Shown here: piece by piece, positions 25,911 to 35,171 of the stretch
Layout of the letters: the number at the start of each line of letters is the position of its first letter
Numbering within the stretch: the stretch's first letter is position 1
The notes under the pieces: model-generated
Told to the model about the DNA's origin: nothing
The model's input: only the letters and a program-made list of their open reading frames with translations
The model's database searches: none
Source of the DNA: an uncultured Bacilli bacterium
GTDB lineage: Bacteria > Bacillota_I > Bacilli_A > RF39 > UBA660
Assembly: GCA_947629405.1 (NCBI GenBank)
Contig: CANRDL010000003.1
Coordinates: 11,526-75,525 of the forward strand
Length of the DNA: 64,000 nt
Reading direction: 5' to 3'
Position numbers and translations under genes: made by a program

Positions 25911-28900
25911 ATGAATAAATTAAAAAATCTTATCATGTTATTTTTAGTCGTTGCTTTATTACCTTTAACTGTTTCAGCAGCTGATAAATTAAATTTAAAA
26001 GTGAATAAAACAGATTTGAAGGTTGGAGACGAAGTTGTTGTTAGTGCAAACATTCCGGGTAATGAGGATTACTATGCCGCTTTTGCAACTTTAAAATATG
26101 ATGAAAATGTTTTTGAAAAAATAGATGATACAAATTTCTTTATTACTGAAAATGTAATGGATGTTACCTATAATAAGAAAAATCATAAATTTGCTATTCT
26201 TAATAAGAATGGAAAAAATGAAAATGCCTTATTTATGGTAAGTTTAAAAGTTAAAGATAATGCCAATTCTGGTGATACTAATATTGCTTTGACTAATATT
26301 TCGATTTCTGATGGCGATAAAGAAGTGAATTTTCCGAAAGTTTCAAAGAAAGTTTCGGTAAGTGGCTCAAATAAACAGGCTATGGCTTCTAACAAAATTA
26401 CGGATGATCAAAACATTATTGTTAAAACTTTTACAACTGTTCCTATAATTATTATCCTTTCTATTGTGGCAATTATTTTATTTATTACGATAGGATATTT
26501 GTATTTCCATCATCGTGATAAAAAGAAAACAATTAATACTTTAAAAATTTTAGCTATTTTATTAGTTGGCATAGTTTTAGTTTTATTTGGAATTAATTAT
26601 CATAAACAAGATATTGATAAAGACAAAAATAAAGATTATAGTGACTCTAAAAAAATTGTTGATTATATTCTTAAGATTGAAGATTCTCAACAGGGAGATT
26701 CTGCTTATGATATAAATAATGATGGGAAAATTAATGTTAAAGATGTAGCAAGACATGTTAAAAATTTAAAAAAAATAAATTATAAAGTTGAATTAAAACC
26801 AGGACAATTCAAATATTATTATAAAAAAGATGAAAATATTACTTTAAACTTTAGTGCTCAAGTAACTAATAATGTTAAAATCCAAGAAGTTTATGTTAAT
26901 GGTAAAAAATATAAAGTTGATGGTAATTATTCAGTTACTATAGATGCAACAAAGAAAGCTGGTATTCATAATTTTACAATTTCGAAAGTAGTTTTAGCAA
27001 ATGGAGAGACTGTTGATACTAACAGCATAACATTTACCGTTGATATTTTAAAAGAGGAGCCAACGGTAAAAACTGTTAGTTATGATGCTAAAAATCAAAA
27101 GCTTACTGTTTATAATAATGATATAGATAAAGCATTAGCGGATGCCAAGCTTGTTATTGCAAAGGGTAAGGATGTGTCATACGAATCAGTTTATAAAGAA
27201 TTATATGATACAGATTATAATAATTCTAATGGCAATATTGACCCAGATCAAGAAGAACAAATTGGCGATTCAGAAATTGATGCTGAGATAGTGTATGAAG
27301 AAGATTTAAGTGTTGCTAAAGATGAAAATAAATTAGATGAAGTTAAGCTAAAATTAGGTGAAACTTATAAAATATTTGTTATTGGTAGTTATGATTTAGA
27401 TAGTCATCTTGGTGATAAAAACTATTATAAAAGCCAAAAACTTTATGAAAAAGAGTATATTAATGGTGAAGTAACTATAACTCCAATTAATACCTTAAAT
27501 TATATTGAACAAAATGCTTCAGCTCAACTTCAATTTGAAGTTAATATTCAAATTGATGATGATGTAATGGCTCAATATTTAAATCAATCTACTATTTCCA
27601 AAGTTGTTATAGACGGAATAACTAGAGACATTACTTATGTTGATGGTCATTATGTTTTATCTTTAAATCCTAGTAGTGTTCCTGATGAAAAAGATCATAT
27701 TATTTCTTCATTAATTTTTAATGATGGTACAGAAATTCTATGTAATTATAATTTTAAATATGAGGTATTAAAAAGCAAACCGCAATTTGAAAATTTTGTA
27801 TATCATCATAGTAGCAAGAAAATAACATTTACTTTAAATGATAAAGATAAAGCTTTAAAAGATGGTAATGTTGTAATTACTAAAGAAGGTAGTAATACGC
27901 CAATATTTGAACATAAAATAGATGCATCTTTAATTAATTTTGAATATAAAACTGATGAACTAGAAGAAGGAAATCATTATACTGTTAAATTAGAAGGAAA
28001 ATATGATTTAGATAGTGATGATACTAATGAAGAAAATGAAGGAAATATACAATATGAACAAAGACTTACAGTTCATGATGTTAAATTAACTGCTGTAGAT
28101 GATACCTATTTTGCCCAAAAAGGTGCTGAAGTTGAGTTAAAGTTTAATGCTAATATTACACCACAAGATGATGAAAATGATAATGATATTATTACTGATA
28201 TTGTTATTAATGGAGAAACTATCAATAATCCAACTCTTAATGCTGATGGTTCTTATAGTGTTAAAGTAACTGCTCCCGCTGAAGCAGGAGTTAAAGATTA
28301 TAAAATAACCAAAGTAACTTTAGGTAATGATGAAATAAATACTAATTCAACTTTTAAAGTTGATGTATTAAAAGATAAACCAACTATTGAAAATTTCTAT
28401 ATTGATGAATCTAGAGAAGAAACAAATATTCCGGAAATTAAATTTAATTTAATCGATAACGATAGTGCTTTAAATATAGATAATTCTGGTACGATAGTCA
28501 TTAAAGATGAAGAAAAAAAGACGATTTCTACTAATAATTTTAGCGGAAACGGCGATATATCTTTAGATTTAAATAAATTAAAGGGAAAATATGAAGAAGG
28601 AAAGACTTATTATTTAGATATTTTACTAAATTATGATTTAGATTCTGATAGCAAAAATGGGCAAAATGCCGTAACAAATGAAGTTGTTGAAAATTATCAA
28701 GATAAAGAATTTAAAATCTATAAAGCTACTCTTAAATTAGCTAGTGAAGATAACTTATATTTTGAAAAAGCTGAAACTAAATCTATTAATGTAAATGCTT
28801 CAATATCTCCTGCATCTGATTCGGTTAATATCGGCTCATTTATAATGGCTGATGGAGAAGATGTTCCAGCATTATTAAATGATGGTAATTTAGCTATCCA

Positions 28901-35171: not shown

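Follow-up and report, generated by a model that had tools for sequence, protein, structure and literature searches.

A giant M26-like metalloprotease with a predicted cohesin, membrane hairpin and dockerin anchor in an uncultured Bacilli bacterium of the rabbit gut

The stretch of DNA analysed here (the window; 64,000 nucleotides, positions 11,526 to 75,525 of contig CANRDL010000003.1, assembly GCA_947629405.1) comes from an uncultured Bacilli bacterium, and at 25911-35171 on the plus strand it carries a single intact open reading frame (ORF) of 3086 codons with an ATG start. A first-pass annotation, made from the sequence alone, had reported exactly this ORF and read its product as a surface metalloprotease with an M26 catalytic domain and GLUG repeats, similar to the streptococcal Zmp and immunoglobulin A1 (IgA1) proteases, in a very AT-rich and apparently non-streptococcal genome. 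The peptides quoted in its support (TGTLNGNGYTIENLSKPLF, NGGLIGSAYD, NGVLVGRLENS, NGGLVGNAINS and GGEDYAD) are all found in the translation. The GC content is 25-28% along the gene and 17-30% along the window, in line with the AT-rich description, and the source, metagenome-assembled genomes (MAGs) of 'uncultured Bacilli' from the rabbit gut, is indeed non-streptococcal. Standard code 11 applies, since TGA ends 6 of the 15 long genes of the window. The features of the gene are given below by window position and amino acid residue (aa), and the domain names of the protease head are those of PMC7695701 and PMC9637739.

25817-25845, plus strand: promoter-like site ATAACA-17-TATAAT from a consensus scan (10/12 matches); weak, such sites being no more frequent here than shuffling would lead one to expect.
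25894-25901, plus strand: Shine-Dalgarno sequence GGGGGAGG, 9 nt ahead of the ATG at 25911, read from the sequence.
25911-25979, plus strand: predicted signal peptide, aa 1-23, MNKLKNLIMLFLVVALLPLTVSA then AD; hydrophobic over aa 1-27, with a V-x-A motif, a model helix at aa 2-19 and presumed cleavage.
25980-26375, plus strand: cohesin-like beta-sandwich, aa ~24-155, from Pfam matches in the family, a family profile, the model and Foldseek.
26430-26603, plus strand: predicted transmembrane hairpin, with helix TM1 at aa ~174-200, basic loop HHRDKKKT and helix TM2 at aa ~205-231, from hydrophobicity, model and conservation.
26607-26765, plus strand: predicted dockerin, aa 233-285, with calcium-loop motifs DIDKDKNKDYSD and DINNDGKINVKD, from a near-threshold Pfam score, family matches and the model.
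26766-31610, plus strand: stalk, aa 286-1900, a leading half-unit and seven tandem units of two beta-sandwich domains each, from motifs, unit alignment and model.
31611-32330, plus strand: M26 N-terminal domain, aa ~1901-2140, a right-handed beta-helix with GLUG repeats corresponding to the gating NTD2 of IgA1 protease, from Pfam, the model and alignment to the 7jgj/6xja beta-helix.
32331-33962, plus strand: M26 middle domain, aa ~2141-2684, ending in the HETAH helix, from Peptidase_M26_C, a mostly helical model and alignment to the middle domain of the S. pneumoniae IgA1 protease.
33939-33953, plus strand: predicted zinc-binding and catalytic motif HETAH (H2677, E2678, H2681), the sole HExxH, from alignment and invariance.
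33963-35171, plus strand: M26 C-terminal domain, aa ~2685-3086, plus the stop codon; predicted local distance difference test (pLDDT) score >90 over most of it, and aligned to the C-terminal domain of IgA1 protease.
34011-34013, plus strand: E2701 in GGEDYAD, predicted third zinc ligand, aligned to the IgA1 protease Glu and invariant.

The gene is no assembly artefact or chimera, because an independent ENA assembly holds a 3084-aa copy that is 97% identical, with the same downstream genes and neighbours, and because the gene is covered from end to end by short contigs from several public rabbit-gut runs. Its reading frame is intact in strain variants, whose differences are mostly substitutions, with three indels that keep the frame (loss of 6 nt at 28176/28177; gain of AAA at 31672); one run (X6) has a paired 1-nt deletion and insertion, 3 nt apart. 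Apparent joints in reads aligned to the gene matched only 20-48 letters on one side, and they were treated as low-complexity noise and dismissed as rearrangements.

The last ~1190 residues are, by sequence and by model, a complete M26 catalytic region made up of a GLUG beta-helix, a middle domain and a C-terminal domain. In Pfam scans of fragments of the protein, Peptidase_M26_C scored 122 bits (gathering threshold, GA, 22; E 3.2e-35) over aa 2363-2995, covering profile positions 95-726 of 792, and Peptidase_M26_N scored 40.0 bits (GA 27.7) over aa 1902-1981, covering positions 159-248 of 250, with no counterpart in the protein for the first 158 positions of that profile. Glug gave three matches (36.7 bits, GA 20.5). 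A scan of the whole 3086-aa protein, on the other hand, returned Glug alone and missed both Peptidase_M26_C and Peptidase_M26_N. Long, compositionally biased proteins can yield false negatives in single-pass hmmscan; since only Glug was returned, a refutation test by whole-protein Pfam scan gives a false negative here unless the protein is cut. The hmmscan check that had been proposed for this gene thus succeeds on fragments and fails, but for Glug, on the intact protein.

Comparison with NCBIfam models places the protein at a similar distance from three of the streptococcal enzymes, with 144.9 bits for ZmpA (NF046017), 129.7 for ZmpB (NF046019) and 130.2 for ZmpC (NF046021), at E 1e-42 to 1e-38 and against cutoffs of 3000; the ZmpC alignment is the longest (aa 1671-3013). 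On these scores it is a distant homologue about equally far from ZmpA, ZmpB and ZmpC, and an orthologue of none. Among PDB sequences, phmmer matched only the IgA1 proteases of Streptococcus pneumoniae and Gemella haemolysans, at E 3e-39 to 8e-37 over ~1070 residues. HETAH (aa 2677-2681) falls on HEMTH 1604-1608 of the IgA1 protease in this alignment, and the Glu of GGEDYAD (E2701) falls on that of GLGPEFFAK (E1628), a Glu that lies 20 residues past the second His in both (H2681 to E2701, H1608 to E1628). H1604, E1605, H1608 and E1628 are the zinc ligands and catalytic base of the S. pneumoniae enzyme (PMC7695701). The HEXXH and downstream Glu of M26, the gluzincin arrangement, are therefore present in the aligned head. 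H2677, E2678, H2681 and E2701 (E801 of the fragment) are invariant in 33 aligned sequences, streptococcal-type ones included. The protein has no HExxH other than HETAH, which lies at 33939-33953 as had been reported.

An AlphaFold2 model of aa 1901-3086, built on a 33-row alignment (pLDDT 89.4; predicted template modelling score 0.75), begins with strands that form a beta-helix (aa ~1920-2135), continues with a middle domain made mainly of helices, the last of them carrying HETAH, and closes with a C-terminal domain. Foldseek against the PDB matched this model strongly to solved IgA1 proteases only (7uvk, 6xja, 7uvl, 6xjb and 7jgj; E 7e-48 to 2e-43, template modelling score ~0.6); after these comes 3n6z, from Bacteroides ovatus and putatively an IgA1 protease, with E 3e-6 over ~330 alignment columns. 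It had been held that a lack of significant M26 or GLUG matches, or a model with HETAH outside a gluzincin-type fold, would speak against the assignment to M26 with GLUG repeats. Neither was found, so that the assignment stands, carried by the fragment Pfam scores, the phmmer match and the exclusive fold match to IgA1 proteases. The layout of the Zmp and IgA1 proteases, which the first-pass annotation extended over the C-terminal ~1500 aa, is likewise present, although the homology spans a shorter stretch of about 1190-1400 residues.

The anchor lies at the other end of the protein. When 24 family members are aligned over their first 330 residues, the N-terminal plan proves fully conserved: a V-x-A signal peptide (V21 and A23 are almost invariant), a beta domain of ~130 residues, TM1, a lysine-rich loop, TM2 and two D-x-N-x-D-G-type calcium loops, each with a helix. 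A model of aa 1-625, built from an alignment of truncated homologues, reached a pLDDT of 81.3. Pfam Cohesin was found in 17 of the 24 members when they were scanned separately (best E 1.3e-11), and the window copy aligns throughout with its relatives in this set. The family profile matches the solved cohesin 5g5d (E 9e-5) and the NagJ cohesins of Clostridium perfringens, while the model is all-beta at aa 28-151 and matches the C. perfringens cohesin-FN3 structure 2w1n in Foldseek (E 1e-9). Dockerin_1 was found at E<=0.01 in 14 of the 24 members (best E 2e-8), and distant relatives score 28-43 bits; in the window protein a helix follows each calcium loop in translation and model. Between the two, Kyte-Doolittle analysis gives hydrophobic segments at aa ~167-201 and ~206-232, besides that at aa 1-27, and the model has two long helices at aa 177-200 and 205-231 between beta domains. 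By the positive-inside rule, the hairpin would have its loop in the cytoplasm and both flanks outside.

A motif LP.[TSA][GAN] occurs nowhere in the 3086-aa protein, which extends to its full length the earlier remark that there is no LPXTG at either end, and G5 (PF07501) had no match in any fragment, even at E<=10. The expectation that anchoring must differ from that of the streptococcal enzymes is borne out in that a signal peptide, a cohesin, two transmembrane helices and a dockerin are predicted instead. Cohesins or dockerins other than those of the M26 genes were found neither in the window nor in 16 related loci, and across these loci the cohesin and dockerin of the gene would form a self-contained pair. 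Right ahead of TM1, at aa 168-180 (nt ~26412-26450) and in relatives, stands a motif of the approximate form E-x-(I/V)-(I/V)-K-T-F-(T/S)-N-x-P with a nearly invariant Pro; it occupies the place where Clostridium-type relatives have LPxTG, and may be a helix cap or a processing signal of another kind. A wall-less, Mollicutes-like host was considered as the reason for the missing LPXTG and rejected, as TGA is a stop codon and a PASTA kinase, an M23 peptidase and a BclA-like collagen protein point to a wall.

The stalk between anchor and head was recognised from short conserved motifs and from an alignment of its seven units, which are 199-240 residues long. VLKxxP anchors occur at aa 379, 619, 819, 1033, 1232, 1459 and 1673, and YDLD motifs at aa 494, 698, 908, 1107, 1320, 1541 and 1749. 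Fragment scans gave no Pfam family above threshold in the stalk, and self-BLAST of the protein gave no internal repeats at E 1e-3. The model of aa 286-625 is all-beta, with two beta-sandwich domains per unit, and Foldseek matched the N-terminal model to, among others, Ig/FN3/macroglobulin-type domains arranged in arrays and to the C. perfringens GH84C cohesin-FN3 pair. Across the family the stalk varies from ~4 to well above 20 units.

The closest known enzymes are S. pneumoniae ZmpA (6XJA, 6XJB, 7JGJ) and the IgA1 protease of G. haemolysans (7UVK, 7UVL), which have the same order of beta-helix, middle and C-terminal domains over ~1190 residues, with HExxH at the end of the middle domain and the Glu ligand 20 residues on. 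The gene plan is also shared, in that a signal peptide, two transmembrane segments and repeats precede the protease; the streptococcal version has an LPXTG between signal peptide and transmembrane segments and a protease of ~1200 aa (PMC3518915). The window protein differs in having HETAH in place of HEMTH and ~20-27% identity, in lacking the N-terminal LPXTG, YSIRK signal, G5 domain and trypsin-like domain, and in placing a predicted cohesin before and a predicted dockerin after the hairpin. Its repeats are predicted to be folded beta-sandwich pairs, whereas theirs are disordered and Pro-rich, and its host is the rabbit gut rather than the human airway. Since LPXTG and G5 were looked for and not found, the protein is, on its sequence, not a ZmpA-type IgA1 protease as defined in PMC9637739. 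Streptococcal ZmpB and ZmpC share the M26 region at about the same distance as ZmpA, but have the LPXTG-type N-terminus; neither the substrate of ZmpB (unknown) nor those of ZmpC (MMP-9 and mucin-type glycoproteins) can be transferred to the window protein. Glycoside hydrolases of C. perfringens (NagJ/GH84C cohesin; 2JH2, 2O4E, 2OZN, 2W1N) likewise carry cohesins and dockerins on enzymes that act on host glycoproteins and not on cellulose, and their cohesins are among the best sequence-profile and fold matches. In C. perfringens, however, cohesin and dockerin sit on separate secreted enzymes, whereas the window protein would join them in one polypeptide with a membrane hairpin between them and a protease.

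About 35 close relatives (2383-4037 residues, 40-97% identity) follow the same plan. LPXTG is absent from all 35, while streptococcal-type matches have LPNTG at residue 98, and those numbered P0036-P0040 carry a G5 domain. HExxH is kept in nearly all full-length relatives. An exhaustive HMMER search with the catalytic region against 1.84 billion representative proteins gave 564 matches at E<=1e-3, of which 161 had E<=1e-30. More than 130 clusters at 50% identity are nearer to the window protein than the streptococcal-type proteins, which have HEMTH and an LPxTG around residue 100 and come only at about rank 140. The N-terminal layouts counted among 145 long matches were as follows.

Cohesin, transmembrane segment(s) and dockerin, without LPXTG: 73
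Cohesin, LPxTG, TM1, basic loop, TM2 and dockerin: 4
Streptococcal layout (LPXTG, TM1 and TM2 only): 7

Judged from these sequences, the layout that the ~150 nearest M26-like clusters show most often is cohesin-hairpin-dockerin. Such proteins also occur beyond rabbits, in a mouse-gut Clostridia MAG and in Clostridium tertium. The four LPxTG-bearing cohesin proteins have Pfam Cohesin and/or Dockerin_1 above threshold, and one of them, P0125, falls in the same 90% cluster as the same-length C. tertium protein P0211 (WP_271845996.1), annotated as 'ZmpA/ZmpB/ZmpC family metallo-endopeptidase'. The C. tertium protein and the MAG proteins P0087, P0101 and P0108 have the layout predicted for the window protein, which runs from signal peptide and cohesin through TM1, the basic loop and TM2 to the dockerin, VLKxxP-type modules and M26 head (head identity ~30-33%), but they keep an LPxTG (LPQTG or LPYTG) between cohesin and TM1 and a possible signal-peptidase site at the end of TM2 (YATA, SLAIS, VKALG, VAAS), both of which the window protein lacks. 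More widely, TM2 of several distant relatives ends in a small-residue motif just before the dockerin (e.g. YATA and VKALG in LPxTG-bearing relatives, AYAFGNKG and VYAFGGKG in others), which recalls the second signal-peptidase site proposed for streptococcal Zmps (PMC3518915). Some M26-like proteins in metagenomes are larger still, at 5000-6693 residues (P0077, P0079, P0089-P0091 and P0100), and several of these have a cohesin/transmembrane/dockerin N-terminus.

The DNA comes from an uncultured Bacilli bacterium that lives in the rabbit gut and has a cell wall and a low GC content. All nine related loci among GTDB species representatives are from 'uncultured Bacilli bacterium' MAGs from rabbits; runs with near-identical gene sequence are mostly labelled rabbit gut metagenome, the remainder being labelled 'gut metagenome' or coded, and 4 of 4 runs with a 50%-identical relative are labelled rabbit gut metagenome. 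That the organism has a wall follows from the PASTA kinase, Stp1, M23 peptidase and BclA-like collagen protein encoded in the window. In this genome the protease gene is surrounded by core genes (RlmN, Stp1, PknB, RsgA, DnaE) with no obvious island, and its immediate neighbours are housekeeping and transport genes, among which no sortase, partner scaffoldin or regulator in an operon with it was found. Two ORFs downstream (35297-36925, plus strand; 446 and 95 aa) are kept next to the gene in the 97%-identical strain; neither has a signal peptide or a family match, and the 446-aa one is rich in coiled-coil-like K/E sequence. Family members diverge by 40-60% between MAGs. The gene neighbours differ in every MAG examined, and in two relatives (L011 1-1018; L012 6549-7523) phage-type integrase genes lie within a few kb 5' of the M26 gene, which suggests that the gene is mobile or seated in variable regions.

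We consider it likely that the gene product is an active cell-surface M26 zinc endopeptidase tethered by a membrane hairpin, with a cohesin and a dockerin in place of the LPXTG step and probably a host mucosal substrate. The signal peptide would export the N-terminal cohesin, TM1 would re-enter the membrane, the lysine-rich loop would remain cytoplasmic and TM2 would re-export the remainder, so that cohesin, dockerin, stalk and protease end up outside the cell, held by the hairpin. The ~14 beta-sandwich domains would form a stalk that keeps the ~1190-residue head away from the wall. Its reach, estimated from typical domain sizes, would be tens of nanometres. In the head, zinc would be bound by H2677, H2681 and E2701 and the water activated by E2678, as in a gluzincin. 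The GLUG beta-helix over the cleft may act as a substrate gate as in the pneumococcal and Gemella enzymes, the two solved enzymes for which such gating has been shown (PMC7695701, PMC9637739), and the substrate is likely to be an extended, exposed linker of a host mucosal protein, such as an immunoglobulin hinge or a mucin-like region. The cohesin and dockerin most likely pair, within one molecule or between neighbours, and this pairing would replace the sortase/LPXTG step, either by clustering the enzyme or, should the enzyme be cut from the hairpin, by keeping it attached to the cell.

The comparison with the Clostridium-type relatives suggests how this anchor may have originated. Their cohesin-LPXTG-TM1-basic tail would be a canonical sorting signal placed internally; with this LPxTG and the possible signal-peptidase site, their cohesin could be fixed to the wall by sortase while signal peptidase frees a dockerin-headed protease able to dock back on the wall cohesin. 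The streptococcal N-terminus would then correspond to the same arrangement minus cohesin and dockerin, and that of the window family to the same arrangement minus LPXTG and cleavage site. Because it has neither of these, the window enzyme probably stays tethered to the membrane permanently, and contacts between cohesin and dockerin would link its molecules.

Several observations weigh against this reading as a whole. The window cohesin itself has no Pfam Cohesin match at E<=0.01, and its Dockerin_1 score of 21.5 bits over aa 233-281 lies 1.4 bits below the GA of 22.9. TM2 of the close family ends in N-x-x-K-K and has no AxA-type signal-peptidase site. The template modelling score to the IgA1 proteases is only ~0.6, with a large root-mean-square deviation, because domain orientations differ, and at ~20-27% identity to the characterised enzymes substrate specificity is not transferable. 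Finally, a search for RNA runs holding the gene turned up none.

Which substrate the enzyme might cut has several possible answers. A mucin or O-glycoprotein protease resembling ZmpC, cutting host mucus or glycocalyx for access to the mucus layer or for peptide and glycan nutrients, is possible but on balance doubtful. ZmpC of the same family strips the mucin MUC16 from epithelia (PMC3296694), its NCBIfam model gives the longest alignment, the organism lives in the gut, and non-cellulosomal cohesin-dockerin pairs are found in the mucin-degrading glycosidases of C. perfringens, whose cohesins (2jh2, 2o4e, 2w1n) are among the matches. However, neither whole-protein nor fragment Pfam scans gave a carbohydrate-binding module or glycosidase domain, there is no sequence sign of glycan recognition, the adjacent genes are of housekeeping and transport type, and known gut mucinases mostly belong to M60 and M98. 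It is unlikely, if conceivable, that the protein is the IgA protease of a rabbit commensal, cutting the Pro/Ser/Thr-rich hinge of at least one of the 15 rabbit IgA subclasses as ZmpA cuts human IgA1, and that the diversified rabbit-gut Bacilli family is the bacterial side of an arms race over the lagomorph IgA hinge. The only solved structural relatives are IgA1 proteases, all the domains that contact IgA1 are present (beta-helix for Fab, C-terminal domain for Fc; PMC7695701) and ZmpA has a slight lead among the NCBIfam scores (145 bits vs 130 for ZmpB and ZmpC). Rabbit labels on 9 of 9 species-representative loci and on most runs with the gene or its 50%-identical relative, together with the 40-60% divergence between MAGs, would also fit, and it is mainly the hinge that distinguishes the 15 IgA subclasses of rabbits, a diversity for which bacterial IgA proteases have been proposed as the driver (PMC9247829, PMC10435986). 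Against this, IgA1 cleavage among the four M26 paralogues of streptococci is confined to ZmpA, and no substrate is known for the ancestral ZmpB (PMC3518915); the protein is about equidistant from ZmpA, ZmpB and ZmpC, the occurrences in a mouse-gut MAG and C. tertium lie outside rabbits, and the rabbit signal may stem from one large rabbit MAG study.

Targets other than the host (dietary proteins, surface proteins of other bacteria or the cell's own envelope), in a ZmpB-like 'housekeeping' role, seem to us distinctly unlikely. The ubiquity of ZmpB, whose function is unknown (PMC3518915), and the setting of the gene amid core genes with no obvious island would suit such a role, yet a stalk of ~1600 residues that projects the head far from the membrane favours a target beyond the cell's own wall, and a location that varies between MAGs, with integrases near in two, is unlike that of a core housekeeping gene. 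Adhesins are common among very large surface proteins that have long beta-sandwich stalks, and the protein could in principle be a catalytically dead adhesin or scaffold that retains just the M26 fold; this is highly improbable given that the four catalytic residues are invariant in 33 of 33 aligned sequences and that nearly all full-length relatives keep HExxH. An active, hairpin-tethered M26 endopeptidase with a host mucosal substrate is the reading that we prefer. A bolder proposal, to which we give only a small chance, is that the rabbit-gut Bacilli family consists of commensal IgA proteases directed at the hinges of the 15 lagomorph IgA subclasses and that, independently, the streptococcal N-terminal LPXTG and double transmembrane segment are a reduced remnant of a self-docking anchor, made of a wall- or membrane-fixed cohesin and a dockerin-headed protease.

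Other parts of the window were also annotated. At 9381-10325 (minus strand) lies a gene for a 314-aa protein with collagen triple-helix repeats and a BclA C-terminal domain, similar to an exosporium glycoprotein, which hints at spore formation; it is flanked by genes for a GT2 glycosyltransferase with TPR repeats (8230-9300, minus strand) and for a 688-aa M23 peptidase with a cadherin-like domain (10433-12499, minus strand). A histidine kinase (17684-18703), an ABC ATPase (18756-19556) and a 691-aa FtsX-type permease (19543-21618) are encoded together at 17684-21618 on the plus strand, and look like a BceS/BceAB-type module for sensing and detoxifying peptide antibiotics. A hybrid histidine kinase with a receiver domain (47974-49962) and a 684-aa GGDEF-domain protein (60318-62372) make cyclic di-GMP signalling likely in the organism. 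The lowest GC content of any 2-kb bin (16.7%) is at 4001-6000, near which the GC skew switches sign (4001-12000 negative), matching a block of minus-strand genes. An Rfam L10 leader (683-796), 5' of rplJ/rplL-like ORFs, and a single tRNA-Pro (TGG; 52524-52600) are ordinary housekeeping features.

To our knowledge, M26 proteases are known almost solely as streptococcal and Gemella virulence factors of the human airway. In 2026 a review of proteases in the gut continued to cast M26 as a respiratory, IgA1-specific strategy (PMC13271334). The kind of protein described here is already known, in that annotation pipelines label such proteins as Zmp family. On sequence evidence, the gene and the survey built on it reveal that gut Firmicutes have a large clade of giant, as yet uncharacterised M26-like enzymes, whose long members mostly have a predicted cohesin/hairpin/dockerin anchor, and no paper in the literature searched describes the combination of cohesin, dockerin and M26. 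A few LPXTG-bearing relatives appear to bridge the window layout to the streptococcal layout, and the series from cohesin-(LPXTG)-TM-TM-dockerin suggests a self-docking ancestral anchor behind the streptococcal N-terminus. These intermediate architectures provide a testable explanation of the atypical N-terminal sorting signal in the pneumococcal enzymes. If host IgA or mucins are indeed what these enzymes cleave, commensals may use them to live in the mucus layer, and the rabbit, with its 15 IgA subclasses, would be a natural system in which to ask whether bacterial proteases drive hinge diversification. Should the family target rabbit IgA hinges, it would be the bacterial counterpart that has long been postulated for the expansion of IgA genes in rabbits.

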